Virus record (IMG/VR): IMGVR_UViG_3300042511_000631
Coordinates: 1 to 64,000 of that record
Strand: one strand, 5' to 3'
From: a virus
Length of the DNA: 64,000 bases
Below, piece after piece: positions 1-25,972 of the stretch. A program made the position numbers and the translations under genes. The notes beneath the pieces are model-generated. The model was not told the DNA's origin. It searched no databases and saw only the letters and a list, made by a program, of their open reading frames with translations. Within the stretch, counting starts at the first letter, position 1; every line of letters begins with the position of its first letter.

Positions 1-120
1 CCAACTCCTCCACCGCCAACTCCTCCACCGCCAACTCCTCCACCGCCAACTCCTCCACCGCCAACTCCTCCACCGCCAACTCCTCCACCGCCAACTCCTC
101 CACCGCCAACTCCACCGCCT
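1..120 (+). repeat. 15-bp coding tandem repeat (CCAACTCCTCCACCG)
   Basis: 7 perfect copies (1-105) plus one variant copy (106-120). Confidence 0.97.
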
Positions 121-240
121 CCGGCGTGTACCCCTGGCGCGGATTGCGCATCGTTCTGTAACGAGTTTGATGCTTTGTACTACTACTACTTGTATGATTC
201 AAGTTGTAACTGTGTTTACTCGGGCTATACGTTCTGTTAG
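1..240 (+). CDS. 3' end of a Pro-rich protein: (PTPPP)n followed by a 6-Cys C-terminal tail (5' truncated by window edge)
   Basis: Frame 1 is open from base 1: (PTPPP)x8-PACTPGADCASFCNEFDALYYYYLYDSSCNCVYSGYTFC-TAG; not in the ORF track. Confidence 0.8.
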   Translation, partial: PTPPPPTPPPPTPPPPTPPPPTPPPPTPPPPTPPPPTPPPPACTPGADCASFCNEFDALYYYYLYDSSCNCVYSGYTFC

Positions 241-252
241 GATGTGCTAATG
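235..252 (+). promoter_or_regulatory. extended -10 promoter, leaderless start
   Basis: TGt-TAGGAT (238-243), 6 nt, ATG (250). Confidence 0.55.
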
Positions 253-624
253 ATTGCAAAAGTTAGCGCACCTAAGCCGTACGCGGTGATGATTGATGGG
301 GAGTACGCTCTGCCATTTTTCTTTCCTTCAGAAGGCACAGATGAAGTGGTTATGATGACAGCGGCTCTTCAAAGCAACCCAACAATTACATATGTTGGTC
401 TTGAGGCTGACGGTAACTTATGCAAATACTCTGTTTCTGTAGAAGGAGAGTTTGTAGGGTTTATTCACTACATCAATAAAGCGGATGAACCGCACCCTGC
501 GGCGATCAACGCTGCCTTACAGAGCAATCCAACATTTATTCCGATCCCAGTAGATGGCCCAGTTAGGATTGATCAAGAGTGGACGTATGATGGTTCTACG
601 TTTACTCCTGTTGTTAAGGAATAG
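250..624 (+). CDS. hypothetical protein with an internal duplication
   Basis: AALQSNPT occurs twice; WTYDGSTF-type C-terminus often seen next to phage fibre genes. Confidence 0.75.
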   Translation: MIAKVSAPKPYAVMIDGEYALPFFFPSEGTDEVVMMTAALQSNPTITYVGLEADGNLCKYSVSVEGEFVGFIHYINKADEPHPAAINAALQSNPTFIPIPVDGPVRIDQEWTYDGSTFTPVVKE

Positions 625-626
625 CC

Positions 627-863
627 ATGTCGGAGTTATCGCCATGGCAAAAATATAAAGAAAAAATGGGTGATACTCGCCCGTGGGATTTACTAAACCC
701 TGAAAAGAATCGAGCTAGCGAGGAAGTCGCAAACACTCGGTATGAGGTGTGCTTAACCTGCCCAGAGTTTATTAACGTCACTAAACAATGTAAACAGTGC
801 GGGTGTTTTATGGCAGCTAAAACTAAGCTAGAAGCAGCTGTTTGCCCCTTAGGAAAGTGGTAA
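627..863 (+). CDS. small Cys-rich protein (DUF6171-like)
   Basis: RYEVCLTC...QCKQCGCFM...CPLGKW. Confidence 0.7.
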   Translation: MSELSPWQKYKEKMGDTRPWDLLNPEKNRASEEVANTRYEVCLTCPEFINVTKQCKQCGCFMAAKTKLEAAVCPLGKW

Positions 864-865
864 GT

Positions 866-1432
866 ATGTTTAACGCAAAAACCCAAGGAAACTTTATTCC
901 TCAAGACAAGGTTGATTACATCCTTGACATTGTTTCTAAGAACGATTACTGGGAGCCGTCAAGCAGTGAGTTCTGGGACAAGCGAGTTATTAATATTTCA
1001 AAGTCCTACAGCGTAGATAAAGATCTTGGAGACTTTTTAAAGGAAACTGCGCTTAGAATTAAAGAGTTTATTGAACAAGAATACACTTTAATGGATGAGG
1101 TGTACCCAGACGTTATGACTATCAATCGGTGGTTTCCCGGAATGGAACAACCGCCTCATGCAGATGACATGACTAACACAGATGTTAAAGGTCTAGAGCA
1201 TCGAGTCTTTGGGTCAATCATTTATTTAAATACTGACTATACCGGAGGTCATACTTACTACCCTAATCACGGGGTAGAGATCGTGCCAGAGGCGGGAAAG
1301 CTAGCGGTTCACCCCGGAAACGTAGAGCATCTACATGGTGTCACTAAGCTTGAAGGAAACACCCGATACACGTTATCTGCGTTTTGGGTTCACGATAAGG
1401 ACAAGTCAATTGCCTGGCCCCTATATCAATGA
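866..1432 (+). CDS. 2OG-Fe(II) oxygenase, prolyl 4-hydroxylase-like
   Basis: HAD...IIYLNTDYTGG...HGV...RY: HxD..H facial triad plus 2OG-binding Arg. Confidence 0.9.
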   Translation: MFNAKTQGNFIPQDKVDYILDIVSKNDYWEPSSSEFWDKRVINISKSYSVDKDLGDFLKETALRIKEFIEQEYTLMDEVYPDVMTINRWFPGMEQPPHADDMTNTDVKGLEHRVFGSIIYLNTDYTGGHTYYPNHGVEIVPEAGKLAVHPGNVEHLHGVTKLEGNTRYTLSAFWVHDKDKSIAWPLYQ

Positions 1433-2162
1433 CCCAGGGCATGAAGTCCCTGACAACACAATTTTAATTGTCCCACATTCTTTTGAGGACACCAGTAAGT
1501 ACAACGACATCATTCTTCCGTTAAAAGGAGAAGCTAAGCGCGACTGGTTTACATCGCATTTTTATTATTGTTTACCTCTAACCATTGGAAATCAATACGG
1601 TTTTGTTATTAAGTCTTTGCGGGATTTTGATGTGACTTGGTCAGGAGGCTTAGCTCAAGCTGAGATCACATTTACTGATGGCTTAAACGGCGCTCCTCAA
1701 ATTATTTCAAACGGTTTTGGGTCTGGGATCATTACCGTACAGAACTACTTTGCTATAAAAACTCCAATAGGCGTAAACGTCATGGTCATCCAACCGCCAA
1801 ATATGTTTACACCTGGACTTGTGGCAATGACAGCAGTTATTGAGGCTGATCAAATTCGCCGAGACTTTACCTTTAACTTAAAAATCACTGTGCCTAACTA
1901 CAAAATAAGTGTTAAGCGCGGGGACGCGGTGGGGGCATTTATCCCTATCCCTAGGTACTTTGTAGATAAGTTTGAAGTAGCTTCCGTCAAAGACGTTTTT
2001 CCTGATGAGCTTCATTTAAATGAGATATCTGAGTCAAACGCCTTAGGCCGTGAGAGGAACAACATTGACCGCAGCAGGCCACACGCGTCTGGTAGGCGGT
2101 ATTTTAACGGTAAACATGTAGATGACAGCTCCTACCCTGACCATCAAAAGCGAGTCCGCTAA
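1410..2162 (+). CDS. DUF6065-like protein
   Basis: RDWF..HFYYCLPLTIGNQYGF; similar to 24499..25221; TTG start after AAGGA. Confidence 0.7.
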   Translation: MPGPYINDPGHEVPDNTILIVPHSFEDTSKYNDIILPLKGEAKRDWFTSHFYYCLPLTIGNQYGFVIKSLRDFDVTWSGGLAQAEITFTDGLNGAPQIISNGFGSGIITVQNYFAIKTPIGVNVMVIQPPNMFTPGLVAMTAVIEADQIRRDFTFNLKITVPNYKISVKRGDAVGAFIPIPRYFVDKFEVASVKDVFPDELHLNEISESNALGRERNNIDRSRPHASGRRYFNGKHVDDSSYPDHQKRVR

Positions 2163-2245
2163 CCCTGACAAGTCCTAAATACTCTTAGACAATAGGAACT
2201 GCACCCCGATCAGGTGCTATACCACTCTAGAGAATAGGTCAATAA

Positions 2246-3187
2246 ATGGCATTAGACACTGGCGGAAACGTCAAAGTAGATTACGTATGGGGCAACTTCC
2301 CTATGCAACCAAATGATATTCGTACTGAAACAGCCGCATCTAATATTGGTGGCTCAACAGGGGATTACGGCTGGGCAGCTACAACAGCTGTAACAGGCGC
2401 TCGTCTTGACGCAGCTTTGGATAGCCACGCTATCGCAGAAGCAGGATGGTCAGGCTACCCAGATTTTACAGCTGGCACAGGCAACTACATCATCACAGCA
2501 GTTTCAGGTGATGGAACAACAGTTACATACACCTCACAGAACAAGCTTGCAGTTGGAGACTCAGTTAATGTGACTGGTCTTTCAGCAGGTGCTTACAACC
2601 TTTCAGCAGCAACTGTTGCTACAGCAGATGCTCTTAAGTTTACAGTGACCAACGCAGCTAACGCTGGAGCTTTAACAGGCCAGTACGGCAAGGTTCAGCT
2701 AACAACTGCTCTAACAGCAGCTGATGGCGCGGGCATCGGATACATCAACGTACCTAACGTACTTGGTGATACAACAGCCGTAGCTCTTGATGAGCTTAAG
2801 GATGCTGGTTACGAAGCGGCTAATATCACTACAGCTTCAGCAGCATCTAACGTCGGTAAAACTATTACAGCAGCAGCCCGTACAGCAGGTTCAGCGGTTA
2901 TCTCAATTACTTGTGCAAGCCACGGCTTTGTTGCAGGTAACAAGGTAACAGTCTCTGATGTTTCTGGTGGAGATGGCGTAAACGGAGTTTGGACAGTTCT
3001 TGCTGTTACAAACGCAAACGTGTTCACTGTAACTGGAACAGCCACAACAGTTCAGGCTCTAACAAGTCTTGCTGGTGTTGTTTCTGGTGTTGCTGGAACA
3101 ATCAAGACTCAGTCAGTTGCAGCTGGAACAGCTTCAGTGCTTTCAACAGCTACAATCACAATCACACCGTTCGCAACAGCTTCATAG
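2246..3187 (+). CDS. Ala/Thr/Gly-rich putative virion/adhesin protein with a PASTA-like segment
   Basis: VPNVLGDTTAVALDELKDAGY; two beta-rich repeats (LAVGDSVNVTG, HGFVAGNKVTVS). Confidence 0.6.
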   Translation: MALDTGGNVKVDYVWGNFPMQPNDIRTETAASNIGGSTGDYGWAATTAVTGARLDAALDSHAIAEAGWSGYPDFTAGTGNYIITAVSGDGTTVTYTSQNKLAVGDSVNVTGLSAGAYNLSAATVATADALKFTVTNAANAGALTGQYGKVQLTTALTAADGAGIGYINVPNVLGDTTAVALDELKDAGYEAANITTASAASNVGKTITAAARTAGSAVISITCASHGFVAGNKVTVSDVSGGDGVNGVWTVLAVTNANVFTVTGTATTVQALTSLAGVVSGVAGTIKTQSVAAGTASVLSTATITITPFATAS

Positions 3188-3200
3188 TCTCAACACAAAC

Positions 3201-3233
3201 AAAAAGCCCCCGGCTAATAACCGGGGGCTTTTT
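3201..3233. terminator. bidirectional intrinsic terminator
   Basis: AAAAAGCCCCCGG-ctaataa-CCGGGGGCTTTTT between convergent genes. Confidence 0.9.
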
Positions 3234-3234
3234 G

Positions 3235-3495
3235 CTATGTAAATTGTCTTTTAGACCGTCTTGATATATTTTTACGTTCGTCTTCCGTTGTTCCCGCCCA
3301 GATCCCGCGTTCGCGGTTTTCTAAAGCCCAAGTAAGGCAAGCGGCGTTGAAATCACATGTTCTACATATAGCTTTGATTTGTCGTGCCGCGGAAGCTTCT
3401 TCAATTCTATCCGTTGGAAAGAATGTTTCTAAGTCCACTTTACGACAAGGTTGTGTGCCATCAAAGGCCGGAGCCTTATACGTGCATTTGTCCAT
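3235..3495 (-). CDS. whiB: WhiB-family transcription factor
   Basis: C..D...FFP, CxxC, C, GIWAG turn motif. Confidence 0.92.
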   Translation of the reverse strand: MDKCTYKAPAFDGTQPCRKVDLETFFPTDRIEEASAARQIKAICRTCDFNAACLTWALENRERGIWAGTTEDERKNISRRSKRQFT

Positions 3496-3498
3496 GTA

Positions 3499-4008
3499 TT
3501 ATTCCTTTGGGAATGCTTTTAGGAAGCTCTCGTATCTTTCACCATTAGTTTGATTTTGGTACACCTTCCAAGATGACCAGTCTTTTCCACCGTTAGACAT
3601 GTGAAACGCTATCTCAGCGTTTGTAACGGGGTTAAAGAGGTCTGCGTTAGAGTCTAGGTTAAACTTTTTCCTTCGGTCTTCCCCTAGGCTTCCAATCATG
3701 TTGATCTGGAAGACTCCATATGAATTGTCGCCAGTGCCGCTATTTCCGTTGTGCGCTACTGGTCGACCGTTTGATTCTTTCATAGCAACTGCCCAAGCGG
3801 TCTTGAGAGCTTTTCCCTCAAAACCAACCGCTTCTAATAGATCTTTTAATTCTGCTTTGGTAAGAACCTTAGCTTCTTTAAATGTATCTAACGGGCTCAC
3901 AACTTTAATAACTTCTGGAACTACTGGTTCTGCCATTACTGGCGGACAGTTACCCCACAAAATTAAAAAAGTTGCTACTACTGCTGTACGTTTTCTGATA
4001 TTAAGCAT
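3499..4008 (-). CDS. secreted lysozyme-like/lytic transglycosylase
   Basis: N-terminal signal peptide; AVAMKESNG (catalytic Glu), YGVFQIN, W..W motif. Confidence 0.85.
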   Translation of the reverse strand: MLNIRKRTAVVATFLILWGNCPPVMAEPVVPEVIKVVSPLDTFKEAKVLTKAELKDLLEAVGFEGKALKTAWAVAMKESNGRPVAHNGNSGTGDNSYGVFQINMIGSLGEDRRKKFNLDSNADLFNPVTNAEIAFHMSNGGKDWSSWKVYQNQTNGERYESFLKAFPKE

Positions 4009-4127
4009 TGCTGCTCCTCTCAGTAGGCAAAAGCCGGTATCGCTACCGGCTCTGTCATGTTCTAGACTGCCACAGCCTTACAGCCAAAGTCAAGTGGAAG
4101 TAAATATATTTTGTTTACTATGACAAG

Positions 4128-4168
4128 TTATCCACAAGAAACTAACATTTAACAAGTAGTTATCCACA
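4128..4168 (+). promoter_or_regulatory. two consensus DnaA boxes
   Basis: TTATCCACA at 4128-4136 and 4160-4168 in an AT-rich divergent intergenic region. Confidence 0.6.
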
Positions 4169-4230
4169 TTTTTTGTGCTTTTATTCGGAAAACCATTCTG
4201 TGATCAAATTTAAATTGACATTTCTACAGA

Positions 4231-4464
4231 ATGGGTATATTTGTGGTCACGGCTGATAAGATTGTTATTGCTCTCTTCCTTCTTGCGCAAACAGGGGCAG
4301 CAATCAAGTACTTTATGCGCCTTGAAAAGCGTCTAGACAGGATCGACTACCAGCTATATGAGAATGGCGGGAGTTCGATGAAAGACCAAATGAACGATAC
4401 CCGCGATGATCTACAGGAGCTTAAGACCAGTTTTTTAGTCTTAAAGGCTAAACTAGGGGAATAA
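4231..4464 (+). CDS. small membrane protein of the lysis cassette
   Basis: N-terminal TM helix, NGGSS motif, coiled coil; lies upstream of the endolysin. Confidence 0.65.
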   Translation: MGIFVVTADKIVIALFLLAQTGAAIKYFMRLEKRLDRIDYQLYENGGSSMKDQMNDTRDDLQELKTSFLVLKAKLGE

Positions 4465-4480
4465 CCCCTAAGGAGATCAA

Positions 4481-5041
4481 ATGGCAGAGATGGGAACAGT
4501 CGAGAAGCTTATCGACGTAGCCGAAGATGAAATTGGTACTATTGAAGGTCCTAAGGACAATGAGACAAAGTACGGCGCTTTTACTAAGTCTAACTTTCAG
4601 CCATGGTGCGGAAGCTTTGTAAACTGGTGCGGTGACCAAGCGGGAGTAAAAATCCCTAAGACTGTGTACACCCCTTCCGGCGCAGACGCATTTAAAAAGT
4701 CTGGTCGTTGGGAAGACGCAGCCGCTGCCACCCCAAAGAAAGGCGATATCGCCTATTTTGATTTCCCGGCAGATGGCGTCAATCGAATCTCGCATGTTGG
4801 AATTGTTGTAAAGGTAAACAAAGATGGCACCGTTATGTGCATCGAGGGCAACACCTCAGGTGACAAAAAGGGTGACCAGCGCAATGGTGGAGAAGTTTGC
4901 TTAAAACTCCGCGGGTACAAGAAAAACCCAAAGAATGTTATGATTTCTATTGTTGGATTTGGACGCCCTAAGTTCGTCGAGGCTCCAAGTGCAGATGCCC
5001 CAGCCGCAGCTGCTGCAAAATGTCCAACCTGCGGTAAGTAA
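4481..5041 (+). CDS. CHAP-domain endolysin
   Basis: PWCGSFV (Cys), SHVGIV (His), IEGNT. Confidence 0.9.
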   Translation: MAEMGTVEKLIDVAEDEIGTIEGPKDNETKYGAFTKSNFQPWCGSFVNWCGDQAGVKIPKTVYTPSGADAFKKSGRWEDAAAATPKKGDIAYFDFPADGVNRISHVGIVVKVNKDGTVMCIEGNTSGDKKGDQRNGGEVCLKLRGYKKNPKNVMISIVGFGRPKFVEAPSADAPAAAAAKCPTCGK

Positions 5042-5055
5042 CTAAGGAGATTCAC

Positions 5056-5298
5056 ATGAGACTAAATAAAAAGACAAAGGCAATGCTGGCATCTTACGGC
5101 CGTTCATTTCTTTCTGCGGCAATCGCTGTAAACGCAACCGGTAACAACGACTTAAAGTCAATTGTTATTGCTGCTCTAGCGGCTACTTTGCCCGTAGCAA
5201 TTCGTGCAATTAACCCAAAAGACCCAGCATTTGGCGTAGCCGCAAAGATGGCTAGTGACGTACTAGCTAAGGCTGCAAAGAAAAAGACAACTAAGTAA
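5056..5298 (+). CDS. putative holin
   Basis: Two hydrophobic segments, basic C-terminus, directly after the endolysin. Confidence 0.7.
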   Translation: MRLNKKTKAMLASYGRSFLSAAIAVNATGNNDLKSIVIAALAATLPVAIRAINPKDPAFGVAAKMASDVLAKAAKKKTTK

Positions 5299-5308
5299 TT
5301 AACAACTT

Positions 5309-5337
5309 GGGGGGTAGGACACAACCTGCCCCCTTTT
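5309..5337 (+). terminator. probable intrinsic terminator
   Basis: GGGGGTAGG-acacaa-CCTGCCCCC-TTTT. Confidence 0.6.
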
Positions 5338-5356
5338 GTTGTATACTGGAGGAACT

Positions 5357-5563
5357 ATGACTATTAAATGTGCTAACTGCGACCGCGACGCTATCTACAC
5401 CTGTGCTGACCCAGGAGTTAATCCTGTGGACTATTGCGGAGAGTGCCTACCATCTTGGATGGCAGACCGCGCTAACGCAAACCATTTCCCATTGGTGACT
5501 CCTGAAAAGTCATCTAAGAAAAAAGCAGAGGCAACTGAGGCTCCTGCAAGTGAAGATAACTAA
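5357..5563 (+). CDS. hypothetical Zn-finger protein
   Basis: CANC...CGEC; GGAGG RBS. Confidence 0.7.
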   Translation: MTIKCANCDRDAIYTCADPGVNPVDYCGECLPSWMADRANANHFPLVTPEKSSKKKAEATEAPASEDN

Positions 5564-5813
5564 ACACCAAGCTATACAGGTTCATCCAGTCCCTAGCCAG
5601 TTAACTGCACCGCAAGGCCCGTTCCCTAAAGAACTCTTTAGAGAATCAAAAATTATTACAGATTACGCTTCTCAATATGCTGAGGATGGCGCAGAGTTTG
5701 CGCTTGGCGGAACTGTTCAAAATAACTTTAAGCCCATTAAATTTCTACGATGCGCGTATTGTTTAGTTCGTGTACCAGAGAACGAAACTCAAGACCATGA
5801 ATGTGACGAGTAA
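5550..5813 (+). CDS. hypothetical protein
   Basis: C-terminal CxxC...HxC; overlaps neighbouring genes. Confidence 0.65.
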   Translation: MKITKHQAIQVHPVPSQLTAPQGPFPKELFRESKIITDYASQYAEDGAEFALGGTVQNNFKPIKFLRCAYCLVRVPENETQDHECDE

Positions 5814-6349
5814 TGGCCGAAAGCTTTAGACCCAATAAAAAACAGCGCGAAACTATGCGCCGTCGATTTGACGAAGCTAAAGAAGAACTTGGCCGCCTAA
5901 ACGACTTTGACTCGCGTGTCCCTAAGGATGTAGTTGAAGCGGGTACTAAAATGGAAACCGCCCCTACTCGTATCCCAAGTCGCCCTAGAGCAAAAAGTAT
6001 TGGGTATAACTCGACCAGCAGAACTCTTTATATTATTTTTAGAGATAACGCTTGGTGGGAGTACCGCAACGTTCCAATTAAATACTGGGTTGGTTTACAG
6101 AACTCAAACTCTACCGGTGACTATCTAAGAACTGTGGGAAACCCTCCGTTAGATAAATGGCCAGATATGGGGCCAGCTAATCTAGACAATATGTCAACTG
6201 AAGCTAAAACTAGACTTAACGAAAACGCCCTTAGTTCAGAACGCATTCAAGCTGAGATAGACTTTGTTAGAGATAAGACTAAAAGGGTTGAAGCAAAGCC
6301 GATACCTGAAAAGTTTAAAACTACAGGGTTTAAGGGGATGTTTGATTAA
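5813..6349 (+). CDS. KTSC-domain protein
   Basis: SIGYNSTSRTLYIIF....WEYRNVP.......NSNSTGDY. Confidence 0.75.
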   Translation: MAESFRPNKKQRETMRRRFDEAKEELGRLNDFDSRVPKDVVEAGTKMETAPTRIPSRPRAKSIGYNSTSRTLYIIFRDNAWWEYRNVPIKYWVGLQNSNSTGDYLRTVGNPPLDKWPDMGPANLDNMSTEAKTRLNENALSSERIQAEIDFVRDKTKRVEAKPIPEKFKTTGFKGMFD

Positions 6350-20005: not shown

Positions 20006-21388
20006 ATGGCTAAGAAGACTGGTAAACGTTCCGCGGCATCAAACGACTTTTTAGAGCCATTAGCGCCAACAAGCGTATCTGCTACAGATGTTGGAACAGG
20101 CAGAGCGTTTAACAATGGTGCAGCCACGGTTACATTTTCTTTGCCCGCACTATCACCTGCTGCTACATCATTTACTGTAACTTCATCTCCTGGAGGATAT
20201 ACCGGAACCGGGTCATCTTCCCCAGTTACAGTCACAGGTTTGCAATCTAACACCGCCTACACATTTACCGCAACAGCAACTAACGCTTCTGGAACTTCTC
20301 AAGCATCTACGGCATCAGCTTCTATTACCGCAACAACAGTTCCTGCTCAAATGTCCGCCCCAACCCCAACTGCCGGGGTTAACCAAAACTCAATTGCTTT
20401 TTCAGCACCGGCAACTGGTGGAAAAACTATTACTAGCTTTACCATAACAGGCTCTGATGCCACTACTGGAACAGGTGCGACTTCCCCAATTACTATCGCT
20501 GATACTGGTGGAACGTCACAGACATACACAGTCACCGCAACTAACGCTAATGGAACAAGCGTTGCTTCTGCTGCGTCTGGCTCTATTACTACGTTATCCC
20601 CATTTTTCCCGCCATTCTTCCCACCGTTCTTTCCATTTTTCCCGCCATTCTTCCCACCGTTCTTTCCATTTTTCCCATTCTTCCCGCCTTTCTTCCCGCC
20701 ATTCTTCCCATTCTTCCCGCCTTTCTTCCCGCCATCATTTGGTCCTTTCTTCCCGCCATTCTTCCCATTCTTCCCGCCTTTCTTCCCGCCATCATTTGGT
20801 CCTTTCTTCCCGCCATTCTTCCCACCATACTTTGCGTATGTGCCGCCTCCAGCGTTTAGCAAAAACTCCCTAGGCCCTAACGTACTTGTTAGAGGAGAAA
20901 ACGGTTTAATTCGTGCACAAGATTTAGTACTTGGCGACGTTATTCACTCTCTTGATATTCCAGGAATTCCGCAAAACTTTAGAGAGATTGGGACAACTCC
21001 AGAGGATCTTGCGGCAATGTCTTGGGATGTAGAGGCGATCTTATCGGCAACCCCAGTACTAACTACAATTAATAGAATACAGATTGCGCAAAGAACTGGT
21101 GCGGTAATTGTAAGCGGTGAAATGTTTACACGAAACCACCGCATACTTATTGAAAGATCTGGAATTGTAAAGATTGTAAAGGCTCAAGAGCTTTTAGAAA
21201 CAGATAAGGTGTTCGATTACCAAACATCTACTTTTGTTGATATAACTCTAGAATTTATTAACGATATTGAGTTTTATTCGTATAGCATTAACTGTGAGCC
21301 GTACGATTTTTACTTAACAGAGTCTACGTTAACATTTGATAATATTGAATGGTACCCAGACGTAGACTCTCCAAACGCGGTAGAGTAA
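20006..21388 (+). CDS. FN3-FN3-(Pro/Phe)n-Hint domain protein
   Basis: Two FN3 repeats (VTGLQSNTAYTFTATATN); 86-aa P/F tract; Hint blocks SLGPNVLV, TRNH, YSINCEPYDFY. Confidence 0.8.
   Translation: MAKKTGKRSAASNDFLEPLAPTSVSATDVGTGRAFNNGAATVTFSLPALSPAATSFTVTSSPGGYTGTGSSSPVTVTGLQSNTAYTFTATATNASGTSQASTASASITATTVPAQMSAPTPTAGVNQNSIAFSAPATGGKTITSFTITGSDATTGTGATSPITIADTGGTSQTYTVTATNANGTSVASAASGSITTLSPFFPPFFPPFFPFFPPFFPPFFPFFPFFPPFFPPFFPFFPPFFPPSFGPFFPPFFPFFPPFFPPSFGPFFPPFFPPYFAYVPPPAFSKNSLGPNVLVRGENGLIRAQDLVLGDVIHSLDIPGIPQNFREIGTTPEDLAAMSWDVEAILSATPVLTTINRIQIAQRTGAVIVSGEMFTRNHRILIERSGIVKIVKAQELLETDKVFDYQTSTFVDITLEFINDIEFYSYSINCEPYDFYLTESTLTFDNIEWYPDVDSPNAVE
20600..20857 (+). repeat. PFF/PPFF coding microsatellite with a 57-bp higher-order duplication
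   Basis: FFPPFFPFFPPFFPPSFGP twice (atcatttggtcc at 20734 and 20791). Confidence 0.95.
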
Positions 21389-23824: not shown

Positions 23825-24499
23825 ATGAGTACAGAACCTACAACCCCACAATCTTGGAGTAGTTATGAAGAGCTTGCTCCAGGAATATTTGTTTACCACG
23901 ACGTCTTACCAACAGGTCTAAACCTTGTTGATAGACTAGAGTCTGTTTTACAACCTTTAGGGTCTACTGGGTATGCTTGGCAACCAGCTTATGTGGGGTA
24001 TCAACAGCTAATGCCGGAGTATAGAGATTGTGTTGATTTTAAGTTTAAAAAAACAGATGTTCAAAAAGATAATTCAGAAAGCTCTAGGCAACTACAAGAA
24101 ATTTGGCAAGACTGCTACGATAGACAAGCGTTAGCGGTAGAGGATTATTGCCAACGATTTAACATCAACAACTTAAGGTATTGGGAAGCCTTTAACTATA
24201 TTAAGTATGAGGCGGGGCATCATTTTATGGAGCATCACGATCACGGGTTCTCTTATAACTGCACGCTGTCTTTAGTCGCCTATCTTAATGATACTTTTGA
24301 GGGTGGAGAGTTGTTCTTTAGACTTCAAGGGCTAACATATGTCCCAAAAGCTGGAGATGTTGTACTATTCCCGTCTAACTTTATGTACCCTCATCAAGCA
24401 AAAGTCGTTCACTCTGGGACAAAATACTCATTAGTAACAATGCTTGACTATAGTGAAAAGTACCATACACCAGACATGTATCATGAGACTGGATCATAA
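23825..24499 (+). CDS. 2OG-Fe(II) oxygenase, prolyl 4-hydroxylase-like
   Basis: HHDHG, YLNDTFEGGEL, HQA...KY; close paralogue of the previous gene. Confidence 0.92.
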   Translation: MSTEPTTPQSWSSYEELAPGIFVYHDVLPTGLNLVDRLESVLQPLGSTGYAWQPAYVGYQQLMPEYRDCVDFKFKKTDVQKDNSESSRQLQEIWQDCYDRQALAVEDYCQRFNINNLRYWEAFNYIKYEAGHHFMEHHDHGFSYNCTLSLVAYLNDTFEGGELFFRLQGLTYVPKAGDVVLFPSNFMYPHQAKVVHSGTKYSLVTMLDYSEKYHTPDMYHETGS

Positions 24500-25221
24500 T
24501 GTCAATTATTACGGCTTATAAAAAAACACCAACGGCGTTGATTATAGAGCCAATGTCTATTAAGCGCGACTGGATGGACGAAACTCCACAAGGCCATGCT
24601 TATAGGTGCCACCCGGTAACCTCCGCCAATGTTGTTGGTTGGAGCATATCTTCTCCAGTAGACATTAAGTTTATTTGGAACGGTATTAACGACACAAGCG
24701 GTACATCTGTAAAAATTTTAGAAGGTCAAACCTATGTTTATACAGGTAGAGGGCAATCTACAGTTAGCTTTAATACTGGTTTTATCCTTAAAACAAATCA
24801 AAATGTAAGTGTACTAACTGTTACACCTCAAAATTATTTTAATCCAGATATAGAAGTCATGTCTTCTTTGATATCTACATCCTTTTTAAGCACTGATTTC
24901 CCGTTAGCAATTAAGTGCCTGACAGCAAACAAAGAAATTACTATTAAAGCAGGAACTCCAATAGCAACTATCATTCCTATATCTTTGACCTCTTTAAAGG
25001 ATGAATCGGTTGAAGTTGTTGAGTTTGTTCAAACTAAAGAGTACACCGATGCGGTAACATCCTATGGCGCGGCCGCTCAAGAAATAAATAAAACCGGAGA
25101 GTGGACTGATTGGTATAGAAATGCTGTAAACGAAAAGGGGGATTCAGTAGGGTCCCATGAAGTAAAAAACTTAAAGCTTAGTGTTATTGATAATACAGGG
25201 GCTAATAATGAAAATAATTAA
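24499..25221 (+). CDS. DUF6065-like protein
   Basis: RDWMDET...AYRCHPVTSANVVGW. Confidence 0.7.
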   Translation: MSIITAYKKTPTALIIEPMSIKRDWMDETPQGHAYRCHPVTSANVVGWSISSPVDIKFIWNGINDTSGTSVKILEGQTYVYTGRGQSTVSFNTGFILKTNQNVSVLTVTPQNYFNPDIEVMSSLISTSFLSTDFPLAIKCLTANKEITIKAGTPIATIIPISLTSLKDESVEVVEFVQTKEYTDAVTSYGAAAQEINKTGEWTDWYRNAVNEKGDSVGSHEVKNLKLSVIDNTGANNENN

Positions 25222-25972
25222 TTTTATAAGCAATAGACCGTGGCTTACTAAAGAGAGTAAATCAAAACCGGTTCCGACCTCAAAGTCAATACCGCAATGG
25301 TACAAAAACGCGGATAGGTTTGCTAAAATGCCAACTGGAGAACACTACCAAGCAACAAAAGAGATGTGTCCATTCCCTAAAAAAGGCACAACTGATGATT
25401 ATGGGAAGATCCCTACATGGAAAGCTTGTCCTGCACTTTTGGATGTTTTAACAACAGGGTATACCTTGATCACTCCTTGCGACATAGAGTTTTTCTTAGA
25501 TAGCGCTGGGCAGATTGATTTTAAAATTGAAGACCCAATGTATAAAGAGTTTGTTAACAAACGCCCACCTATGCCACAATTTTATCACCCAAAGGGTTAC
25601 TACGAATATCATTTTGCTTGGTGGCCCGAATGGGCGGTAAAAGTTCCAGCTGGGTATAGCGTTTTATATGTATCTCCGTTTAATCGTTACGACATTCCAA
25701 TTATGACAGTTTCTGGGATTATTGATAACGACGAGGTTAACCTTCCTGGATTAATGCCATTTTTTGTACAAGAAGGCTGGGCTGGAGTTTTACCAGCAGG
25801 CACTCCTTACGCTCAACTGTTGCCTTTTTTAAGGGAAGATTGGAAGTCTGAAATTAACATTCCAAAAGAAGTAGAGATGATACAAAACAATATGGAAAAC
25901 AGCAAAAAGTATCGTATTGCAGATGGAGGGGTGTATCAGAAAGAGGTCTGGACTAGGCGGCTCTACGAATAG
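25208..25972 (+). CDS. DUF6065-related protein
   Basis: PQWYK, TWKACPALLD, SGIIDND, GTPYAQLLPF. Confidence 0.6.
   Translation: MKIINFISNRPWLTKESKSKPVPTSKSIPQWYKNADRFAKMPTGEHYQATKEMCPFPKKGTTDDYGKIPTWKACPALLDVLTTGYTLITPCDIEFFLDSAGQIDFKIEDPMYKEFVNKRPPMPQFYHPKGYYEYHFAWWPEWAVKVPAGYSVLYVSPFNRYDIPIMTVSGIIDNDEVNLPGLMPFFVQEGWAGVLPAGTPYAQLLPFLREDWKSEINIPKEVEMIQNNMENSKKYRIADGGVYQKEVWTRRLYE

Follow-up and report, generated by a model that had tools for sequence, protein, structure and literature searches.

The opening of the DNA analysed here would best be explained as the distal part of an operon of phage fibre genes that bears a mobile “tip cassette,” in which an oxygenase hydroxylates the prolines of a Pro-rich stalk encoded by the same operon, a reading to which we give a probability of about 0.5. 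The window, i.e., the whole stretch of DNA that was analysed, covers bases 1-64000 of the 96,518-bp circular record of an uncultured lake phage, a tailed phage whose bacterial host is probably actinobacterial. To the first part of the proposed cassette, a fibre-region protein anchored by fn3 contributes its variable C-terminal half, which forms a Pro-rich stalk, presumably a polyproline-II helix, capped by a small Cys-rich knob, and the second part would be the set of genes that service stalk and knob. A PF13640 oxygenase, made alongside the late structural proteins, would most likely act on the stalk prolines in the host cytoplasm, before assembly, with hydroxyproline as the putative product. 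DUF6065 would be its obligate partner on the same substrate, contributing either substrate handling or a second chemical step, and DUF6171 would serve the knob.

The window opens within the stalk gene. An earlier note on this DNA had described a (PTPPP)x8 tract ending in a 6-Cys, Tyr-rich tail, and this is what frame 1 encodes, namely P(TPPPP)8 followed by a tail of 38 aa with 6 Cys and 7 Tyr (Table 1). The gene is open at the window start because the circular contig was cut within the repeat: the 113-bp “direct terminal repeat” at the contig ends coincides exactly with the perfect array that codes for PTPPP. When the circle is closed, the frame belongs to an in-frame protein of 392 aa, the gene of which starts at genome base 95467, past the window end, and runs across the junction. 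The upstream sequence, which the earlier note had proposed to retrieve, thus shows a complete CDS that is not truncated in the phage, and the possibility that frame 1 is not a real CDS is ruled out by this in-frame closure. Since the terminal repeat is the coding array, the copy number of eight may be a lower bound. The 392-aa protein is composed of two fn3 domains, a polyPro stretch, a beta domain, P5(TPPPP)8 and the 38-aa 6-Cys tail, and its N-terminal part matches the fn3 family in two stretches (PF00041, E 5.7e-16). Its ATG shares bases with the TAA that ends the fibre-like gene ahead of it (TAATG), and the two genes are translationally coupled. In related loci the fn3 gene likewise follows a fibre-like gene, an order that is conserved, and the fn3 N-terminus is 56-76% identical in the 80 loci that were retained out of at least 566 matches.

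Table 1. Features of the window, with positions counted from its first base.
Feature	Position	Strand	Description
Stalk protein, 3′ end	1..240	+	1-123, P(TPPPP)8; 124-237, 38-aa 6-Cys/Tyr-rich tail; 238-240, stop
Perfect 15-nt tandem array	1..113		CCAACTCCTCCACCG x 7.5; same sequence as the final 113 bases of the record
124-aa ORF	250..624	+	Internal duplication (..ALQSNPT.. twice); no family match; RBS AGGA 8 nt upstream
DUF6171-like protein, 78 aa	627..863	+	Six conserved Cys, CxxC...CxxCxC...C
Predicted 2OG-Fe(II) oxygenase, 188 aa	866..1432	+	Collagen prolyl/lysyl-hydroxylase type; PF13640
DUF6065 protein, 250 aa	1410..2162	+	TTG start; modelled dUTPase-like beta-barrel core plus C-terminal helices; invariant Cys
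Short GC hairpin	2201..2217		In the 83-nt gap behind DUF6065, the first sizeable intergenic gap after the operon
fn3 paralogue with PFF repeat (comparator)	20006..21388	+	N-terminus 53% identical to that of the PTPPP protein
Second oxygenase and DUF6065 pair	23825..25221	+	Oxygenase 23825-24499; DUF6065 24499-25221

Four tightly packed genes follow the stalk gene, separated by 2-9 nt or overlapping, and no promoter- or terminator-like site above chance level was found between them. They include the Cys-rich small protein, the P4H-like oxygenase and the DUF6065-like gene previously noticed within the first 2 kb, together with an additional 124-aa ORF that precedes DUF6171. Homologues of this ORF were found in related loci neither by tblastn nor by motif, except in L148, where a single-copy relative occupies the equivalent position. 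Whether the hairpin behind the operon acts as a terminator is uncertain. A blastn search of positions 1-6000 against GenBank phages returned no match, and there are no tRNA genes within the 64-kb window.

Profile and fold comparisons place the product of 866-1432 in the collagen prolyl/lysyl-hydroxylase type, with peptidyl-proline hydroxylation as its predicted activity. It scores 31.2 bits (E 4.5e-7) against PF13640 (2OG-FeII_Oxy_3), above the gathering cut-off of 27, and its top profile matches to solved structures are P3H1 (2.7e-13), the Bacillus anthracis P4H (7e-12) and the PBCV-1 P4H (1.7e-9). The model (pLDDT 96.4) adopts a double-stranded beta-helix fold closest to prolyl hydroxylases, for which the best Foldseek matches were P3H1 (query-normalised TM 0.79), vCPH, BaP4H, PPHD, PHD2 and LH3; LH3 and an L230-type lysyl hydroxylase are found among its sequence and fold matches. 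The catalytic site HxD...H...R is intact, H98, D100 and H157 being invariant and R167 nearly invariant (≥90%) in 54 sequences. The residue that binds the C5-carboxylate of 2OG is Arg in prolyl 3- and lysyl hydroxylases and Lys in collagen P4H. R167 stands at this basic 2OG-binding position, about 10 residues after the distal His, a point against the tip-cassette reading, since the regiochemistry and even the type of residue modified may differ.

The next gene most likely starts at TTG 1410, preceded by AAGGA 8 nt upstream; the mechanical ORF start, ATG 1335, was rejected, as it would create a 98-nt overlap with the oxygenase gene and the ORF of relatives can begin only at the position of TTG 1410. 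Its product scores 113 bits against DUF6065 (PF19541; gathering cut-off 26.6), a family for which 1002 cluster representatives were retrieved at E ≤ 1e-3. The model (pLDDT 95.5) has a predicted dUTPase fold, with a jelly-roll core as in trimeric dUTPases. The listed Foldseek matches are all dUTPases but one dCTP deaminase (best E 2.7e-5; target-normalised TM mostly 0.5-0.72), and in VIA-align the top 22 of 48,161 chains belong to the dUTPase superfamily (dUTPases, dCTP deaminases and herpesvirus dUTPase-related proteins; Z 10.2 to 5.3), with rank 23 taken by 1tul (TLP20), also at Z 5.3, after which scores drop to 4.1. A true dUTPase is nevertheless ruled out by sequence: a PF00692 search of the phage genome came up empty, although it scored in 12 of 14 control genomes, and the DUF6065 profile retrieves no dUTPase at E ≤ 1 among solved structures. 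The sole dUTPase motif left, judged by eye, is a motif-III-like G-V-V-E-T-D. Across 62 diverse sequences, a Cys and an Asn are invariant and Arg, Glu, Asp, His and Tyr positions nearly so; an E-x-D pair kept in most members is absent from the second copy of this genome. Bacteria also carry DUF6065, fused to TPR, sulfotransferase (Stf0) or glycosyltransferase-like (HPAT-like) domains, which counts against the tip-cassette reading. A tblastn search of DUF6065 against GenBank phages gave no match, and no literature naming DUF6065 or DUF6171 was found.

The DUF6171-like protein matches PF19668 with 24.1 bits (E 4.8e-5), under the cut-off of 27, and phrog_13558 with an E-value of 9.4e-17, and its six Cys are conserved in 28 distinct homologues. 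DUF6171 is located behind all 21 of the Cys-tailed proteins tabulated (20 distinct, the protein of the window being counted twice) vs. 2 of 10 other Pro-rich proteins, and appears to be tied to the Cys knob, not to the stalk. A fusion of DUF6171 to PF13640 exists (P0079); a separate search for longer, fused DUF6171 forms found none, which is weak as evidence. In L148, a Cys-tailed polyPro protein is accompanied by DUF6171 and no oxygenase is present in the 1.5 kb left on the contig, an observation that counts against the tip-cassette reading.

The proposal, already made in the earlier note, that the genes form a modular substrate-enzyme cassette finds support in related phages, in which Pro-rich C-terminus and enzymes are inherited together. 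Among 101 distinct fn3-family proteins, an oxygenase lies within 3.5 kb downstream of 14 of the 15 that are Pro-rich vs. 2 of the 86 others (Fisher 3.4e-14), and these two exceptions have short PPxF tracts and 8-Cys tails. The oxygenase followed by DUF6065 is a recurrent unit, present twice in this genome and adjacent in most of 51 related loci, and the two domains are also fused in both orders (PF13640-DUF6065 in P0122 and P0128; DUF6065-PF13640 in P0196). A Pro-rich repeat ORF, most often ending in a Cys tail, is found upstream in about 24 DUF6065-anchored loci, and two complete relatives have exactly one oxygenase and one DUF6065, beside their sole extreme polyPro/Cys-tail gene. That stalk and enzymes travel together in related phages suggests that the phage probably modifies a protein of its own particle. 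The adjacency in related phages is largely shared ancestry; supported branches of the fn3 trees hold only 1-2 contrasts (the best trees, 4-8), which is not enough for a sign test. Partners were found in only two of about 55 loci recovered by a scan of viral contigs for polyPro14-coding DNA, a noisy scan with many matches in non-coding frames or unrelated viruses; the stalk-enzyme link is therefore lineage-specific.

The genome holds a second oxygenase-DUF6065 pair, which had been reported to follow the PFF protein about 20 kb away. The pair is present, but not directly behind that protein; it lies 2.4-3.1 kb downstream, in an island with six PF13640 genes. The notion of two different Pro-repeat genes, each with its own enzyme set, likewise stands in part. 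The two enzyme sets share only 28-30% local identity, as deep paralogues, so the second is not a recent copy of the first; their putative substrates, however, are themselves paralogues, as their fn3 N-termini reveal. Oxygenase phylogeny does not track the adjacent repeat type, a comparison that had been suggested as a check: a single orthologous enzyme clade adjoins polyP, TPPPP, TTPPP, VTPP, PPIIAVT and PFF repeats, and the repeat unit varies freely within it. One enzyme per repeat type is ruled out by both the DUF6065 and the oxygenase trees.

A possible, if rather unlikely, alternative is that the oxygenase and DUF6065 act elsewhere, on a sugar or nucleotide-sugar, a small metabolite or a host protein such as EF-Tu, and that the fibre neighbourhood is a hypervariable site for accessory genes. 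The pair occurs without a Pro-rich neighbour in six to nine loci, among genes for UDP-glucose dehydrogenase, NAD epimerase/dehydratase, carbamoyltransferase and more oxygenases; in L027 and L031-L033 no Pro-rich ORF precedes it and its neighbours are nucleotide-sugar and carbamoyltransferase genes, and DUF6065 stands alone in L049 and L051. The fold of DUF6065 is of a nucleotide-binding type, its fusions to Stf0 and HPAT-like domains point the same way, and the structural matches of the oxygenase include bacterial P4H homologues with EF-Tu as their hydroxylation target. Furthermore, a dioxygenase array encoded with a dUTPase-fold protein in Syn9 was taken as secondary metabolism, with secondary-metabolite synthesis proposed and no protein substrate named (Iyer et al., 2010, PMC2938197). 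Syn9 and the lake phage both encode classical 2OG-Fe(II) dioxygenases together with a dUTPase-fold, Cys-bearing protein; unlike the Syn9 array, the present locus has a single oxygenase which, with DUF6065, is tied to a Pro-rich fibre-tip gene. Against a target outside the fibre, whether an oxygenase accompanies the fn3 gene changes with the kind of C-terminus that this otherwise conserved gene encodes, the only oxygenase of complete relatives stays beside their only polyPro/Cys-tail gene, and the genes are packed into a late fibre operon.

It is improbable that the enzymes modify the fibre tip at its Cys/Tyr/Asp/Asn-rich knob or at the junction, by hydroxylation or cross-linking, and that the Pro tract is an accompanying spacer. 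Nearly all neighbours of the oxy1 type end in a tail with 4-8 Cys, proteins with hardly any Pro tract and an 8-Cys tail still have DUF6171 and an oxygenase (L116 and L132), and the fusion in P0079 joins a 6-Cys DUF6171 to an oxygenase. Proteins of the PFF and VxPP types that lack a Cys tail (L036, L037, L039, L048, L050 and the PFF protein of the window) are nonetheless followed by oxygenases and DUF6065, and the tail sequences are unconserved, the common feature being proline richness. Least probable of the rivals is the view that DUF6065 and DUF6171 are assembly chaperones or structural partners of low-complexity tips and only the oxygenase is catalytic: it draws on the likeness of DUF6065 to trimeric dUTPases, on non-enzymatic dUTPase-fold proteins among the structural matches, on the second DUF6065 copy without the E-x-D pair and on distant DUF6065-like (phrog_7084-type) genes, which also speak against the tip-cassette reading and which in 10 of 77 loci come 127-989 nt after oxygenase-free fn3 fibres with Gly-rich tails, but the invariant and near-invariant residues of DUF6065 resemble an active site, and its bacterial fusions to enzymes and TPR domains involve no phage fibre.

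The closest parallel to stalk hydroxylation within a cassette is the chlorovirus-type system of PBCV-1, whose P4H hydroxylates (PAPK)n-type repeats of its own virus (Eriksson et al., 1999, as reviewed in PMC3634087). Both viruses encode a small monomeric-type oxygenase of the P4H family and proteins with short Pro repeats, and the PBCV-1 structure (vCPH, PDB 5c5t) is among the best profile and fold matches to the lake-phage enzyme. On the other hand, the lake virus is a tailed phage of a bacterial host, and its enzyme, a predicted hydroxylase, is linked to one fibre-region gene as well as to DUF6065 and DUF6171 and has Arg, not Lys, at the 2OG-binding position. A literature search for phage P4H with Pro-rich proteins found nothing relevant, PBCV-1 and the Syn9 array being the only precedents in the literature searched. 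The oxygenase also recalls LH3/PLOD3 and mimivirus L230 (hydroxylase plus glycosyltransferase), where a hydroxylase of the same superfamily is coupled to a second domain working on one common substrate, a role that a neighbouring gene or a fusion partner would have here; unlike in LH3 and L230, the partner fold is dUTPase-like rather than that of a glycosyltransferase, and the stalk is without Lys.

In plant extensins, Ser-Pro3-5 repeats are hydroxylated by P4H and subsequently arabinosylated by HPAT. The extensin likeness claimed for PTPPP holds for the repeat itself, since (TPPPP)8 is a Ser/Thr-Pro(3-5) repeat in which eight T-P4 units resemble the S-P4 motif, and a P4H-family enzyme is encoded alongside; its status as a P4H substrate is a sequence analogy only. 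A protein from a Planctomycetaceae MAG joins DUF6065 to an HPAT-like domain (PF23452, 24.1 bits, cut-off 23.9); a search of the phage genome for HPAT (PF23452) gave no match, and control genomes were silent too. Unlike extensins, the phage system operates without a secretory pathway, and the units of related phages differ widely (polyP, PPIIAVT, VTPP, PFF). A bolder and unlikely version would make these tips extensin-like throughout: the polyproline-II stalk would be hydroxylated, DUF6065, with a catalytic Cys and a nucleotide-linked donor, would add, e.g., a sugar to hydroxyproline, and DUF6171 would load or fold the Cys knob, held by disulfides or metal.

Few “auxiliary metabolic” genes of aquatic phages are as common as those for 2OG-Fe(II) oxygenases, and we know of no substrates established for these enzymes. 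The present locus provides a small, testable substrate-enzyme set, consisting of the 188-aa oxygenase, the stalk protein and two partner proteins. It also offers a way into two domains whose function is unknown, namely DUF6065, with more than 1000 cluster representatives and hydroxylase, sulfotransferase and glycosyltransferase-like fusions, and the Cys-knob-linked DUF6171. Were the extensin-like version to hold, the virions of tailed phages of freshwater bacteria would be decorated by a new pathway that modifies proteins in two steps and includes a new enzyme family. If the stalk is hydroxylated, its protein would be, to our knowledge, the first among the structural proteins of tailed phages to bear hydroxyproline, and such oxygenase genes would shift from “metabolism” to virion decoration and host recognition.

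The 96,518-bp record, whose bases 1-64000 make up the window, carries a direct terminal repeat of 113 bp (window 1-113 and genome, i.e., whole-record, 96406-96518) that is exactly the perfect PTPPP-coding tandem array, 7.5 copies of the 15-nt unit CCAACTCCTCCACCG. Given this identity, the assembler broke a circular or concatemeric genome within the stretch coding PTPPP, and the true number of repeat copies may be higher. Once the circle is closed, an in-frame ORF of 392 aa runs from an ATG at genome base 95467, which overlaps the stop codon of the fibre-like gene upstream (TAATG). The frame with which the window opens thus belongs to a real CDS, as the earlier note had supposed. Five related contigs (L009, L016, L028, L040, and L045) also start within their own Pro-rich repeat; assemblies of such phages therefore tend to break at the Pro-repeat gene and may understate repeat length.

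From this gene on, the block is compact: its three intergenic gaps measure 9, 2, and 2 nt, and its last two genes overlap by 23 nt. The TTG start of the DUF6065 gene is preceded 8 nt upstream by AAGGA, and its position is the only possible ORF start in relatives. No promoter-like or terminator-like site stands out inside the block, and an 83-nt gap with a hairpin lies directly 3′ of it. Further downstream are found a 313-aa ORF, whiB and SLT lysozyme genes on the other strand, a small ORF judged by eye to be holin-sized, and a CHAP endolysin gene. Window 3235-5041 takes in the minus-strand whiB-like gene (E 1e-16), the SLT lysozyme, which has a signal peptide, the holin-sized ORF, and the endolysin; this region points to an actinobacterial host. 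Since the block sits between fibre genes and lysis genes, it would be expressed alongside the late genes. The 124-aa ORF consists of a duplicated ~60-aa unit with an ALQSNPT motif; a single-unit version, L148:7343-7546, occupies the equivalent place, flanked by a polyPro/Cys-tail gene and DUF6171, and no other relative was found among the loci examined.

Features of the Pro-repeat protein, of the genes behind it and of distant DUF6065-like genes in related contigs
Feature	Position	Description
392-aa protein	N-terminal part	two fn3 domains (PF00041, E 5.7e-16)
392-aa protein	after fn3	run of 13 prolines
392-aa protein	middle	~95-aa domain, without relatives
392-aa protein	stalk	P5(TPPPP)8
392-aa protein	C-terminus	38-aa tail (knob), 6 Cys and 7 Tyr
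124-aa ORF	250-624	internal duplication, without family
DUF6171-like	627-863	78 aa
PF13640 oxygenase	866-1432	188 aa
DUF6065	1410-2162	250 aa
phrog_7084-type genes	127-989 nt behind fn3 gene	L071, L073, L090, L095, L100, L107, L112, L114, L117, L128

The oxygenase scores above the Pfam cut-off for PF13640, and when 54 homologues and paralogues are aligned, H98, D100, and H157 prove invariant and R167 nearly so. In having Arg at the 2OG position, it resembles P3H and LH enzymes. Among solved structures, its profile is closest to human P3H1 (2.7e-13), Bacillus anthracis P4H (7e-12), and PBCV-1 P4H (1.7e-9), followed by lysyl hydroxylases and an algal P4H; its AlphaFold model (pLDDT 96.4) best matches P3H1 (TM 0.79), then vCPH, BaP4H, EF-Tu prolyl hydroxylase, PHD2, and LH3. 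The label “P4H-like” is therefore correct at the level of the family.

DUF6065 is a large family (1002 representatives at E ≤ 1e-3) with invariant Cys, Pro, Gly, Asn, Phe, and Tyr positions and nearly invariant Arg, Glu, Asp, and His, and sequence comparison yielded no solved relative. Its model (pLDDT 95.5) has a dUTPase-like beta-barrel core, and the Foldseek hits listed are dUTPases except for one dCTP deaminase. In an all-against-representatives structure search, the top 22 chains (Z 10.2 to 5.3) belong to the dUTPase superfamily, i.e., dUTPases, dCTP deaminases, and herpesvirus dUTPase-related proteins; 1tul (TLP20) ranks 23rd, also at Z 5.3, before scores drop to 4.1. At the sequence level the family does not count as a dUTPase. 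Fusion proteins tie it to modification enzymes: PF13640-DUF6065 (P0122 and P0128), DUF6065-PF13640 (P0196), a cellular Stf0 sulfotransferase-DUF6065 (P0263), and, in a Planctomycetaceae MAG protein (P0135), DUF6065 plus an HPAT-like domain scoring 24.1 bits (cut-off 23.9). HPAT is the hydroxyproline O-arabinosyltransferase family. P0271 is listed with P0135 as a cellular fusion of this type, and, according to a protein atlas, phages may themselves commonly encode HPAT-like proteins. Other cellular proteins (P0136, P0138, and P0143) combine two DUF6065 domains with TPR repeats. In L052, a relative of the island around the second Pro-rich (PFF) protein of the genome, a single ORF (4769-6016) matches both the oxygenase and DUF6065 profiles and appears to be a natural fusion within a phage.

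Comparison of 51 related viral loci anchored on DUF6065 revealed that the order DUF6171, oxygenase, DUF6065 is kept in most of them and that, among those with enough upstream sequence, a Pro-rich-repeat ORF lies just upstream in ~24. Several of these contigs start within the repeat, like the window. The upstream ORFs mostly terminate in a short tail that has 4-8 Cys and varies in sequence, and their repeat units vary widely (polyP, PPIIAVT, TTPPP, VTPP, TPPPP, and PFF). In each of two complete relatives (94.7 and 104 kb), the only PF13640 gene and the only DUF6065 both adjoin the one extreme polyPro/Cys-tail gene of the genome. A search with the fn3 N-terminus gave at least 566 matches, of which 80 loci were kept; these share the two-fn3 module at 56-76% identity, but their C-terminal halves are swapped among several unrelated types, as expected of fibre tips. 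An oxygenase gene lies within 3.5 kb downstream of 14 of the 15 Pro-rich proteins versus 2 of the 86 others (101 distinct proteins; Fisher 3.4e-14, which ignores relatedness). The sole Pro-rich exception is L148, where only 1.5 kb of contig remains. On fn3 trees, both traits change ~4-8 times, always jointly, with too few supported contrasts for a sign test.

We favor, at about even odds (roughly 0.5), a mobile fibre-tip cassette in which the oxygenase would hydroxylate the co-expressed protein at its polyproline stalk, DUF6065 would be the enzyme's partner on this same substrate, and DUF6171 would serve the Cys knob. The main competitor, which we hold to be about half as probable, places the substrate of the oxygenase and DUF6065 elsewhere, for example in a sugar, a metabolite, or a host protein. 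Several observations count against the cassette: L027 and L031-L033 bear the pair without a Pro-rich neighbor, in L027 (3-1876) and L031 (953-5430) within a sugar-modification island, DUF6065 stands alone in L049 and L051, and when viral contigs were scanned for 14-proline-coding DNA, partners turned up in only 2 of ~55 loci; on the other side stands the 14 of 15 association. UDP-glucose dehydrogenase (L027) and NAD epimerase/dehydratase plus carbamoyltransferase (L031) are encoded near the pair, and these two contigs between them also hold further PF13640 genes and ORFs without family. Two further Pro/Thr-rich linker proteins are encoded 4-9 kb upstream of the oxygenase (genome 88069-88839 and 90464-92914), one of them an 816-aa protein whose N-terminus is signal-like and which has a (TP)n/(EP)n tract; in the complete relatives their homologues are 40-70 kb away from the oxygenase, so linkage to it does not hold for every Pro-rich tract. 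L175, apparently from a virus of eukaryotes, has at 4528-5929 an independent, PBCV-like pairing: a P4H-like protein whose N-terminus bears a hydrophobic segment and, immediately downstream of it, a membrane-anchored protein containing ~27 consecutive prolines.

That the knob rather than the prolines is the target seems improbable. The two non-Pro-rich proteins followed by an oxygenase have 8-Cys tails and short PPxF tracts. DUF6171, with six conserved Cys of its own and fused to the oxygenase in P0079, tracks the knob: it follows 21 of 21 Cys-tailed rows (20 distinct, the window's own protein being counted twice) versus 2 of the 10 Pro-rich proteins that lack a tail of this kind (raw p 5.7e-6). 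Slightly less probable still is that DUF6065 and DUF6171 are assembly factors and not enzymes.

The earlier note had seen two separate substrate-enzyme sets in this genome; besides the one at the start of the window, there is the PFF protein (20006-21388) with an oxygenase-DUF6065 pair (23825-24499 and 24499-25221). For the enzymes this stands: the DUF6065 copies are 28% identical, the oxygenases 30% over 53 residues, and the sets, deep paralogues of each other, fall in different, well-supported clades. It does not extend to the Pro-rich proteins, whose fn3 N-termini are 53% identical. The proposed comparison of oxygenase phylogeny with adjacent repeat gave no co-divergence, since the orthologous clade of the 866-1432/1410-2162 enzymes lies beside polyP, TPPPP, TTPPP, VTPP, PPIIAVT, PFF, or no repeat; as a coarse trend only, the clade of oxygenase 23825-24499 is always beside PPxF-type repeats. 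The second DUF6065 copy keeps the family Cys and is devoid of the E-x-D pair conserved in ≥90% of members; its activity may be lost or changed. Distant DUF6065-like genes of the phrog_7084 type, like window 25181-25972, follow fn3 fibre proteins with no oxygenase nearby; nine of these ten fn3 proteins have Gly-rich tails and that of L071 ends in a TGSGSIT-type domain. Members of the dUTPase-fold family may generally partner low-complexity fibre tips. By tblastn, 25181-25972 has relatives in 50 GenBank records (25-27% identity, E down to 2e-12), almost all haloarchaeal tailed viruses (Halorubrum HRTV and Haloarcula HJTV series) and annotated as hypothetical.

No publication on DUF6065, DUF6171, or the hydroxylation of phage fibres came up in a literature search. 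The closest precedents are the P4H of PBCV-1, which acts on Pro-rich repeats of PBCV-1 itself (PMC3634087), and the Syn9 dioxygenase array with its dUTPase-fold protein described by Iyer et al. (PMC2938197), which looks like the same combination as oxygenase plus DUF6065. The likeness to extensin and LH3 logic is by analogy only. The locus adds a Thr-Pro4/Cys-knob type, a negative answer on the matching of enzyme to repeat, the evidence from fusions, and the link between DUF6171 and the knob.
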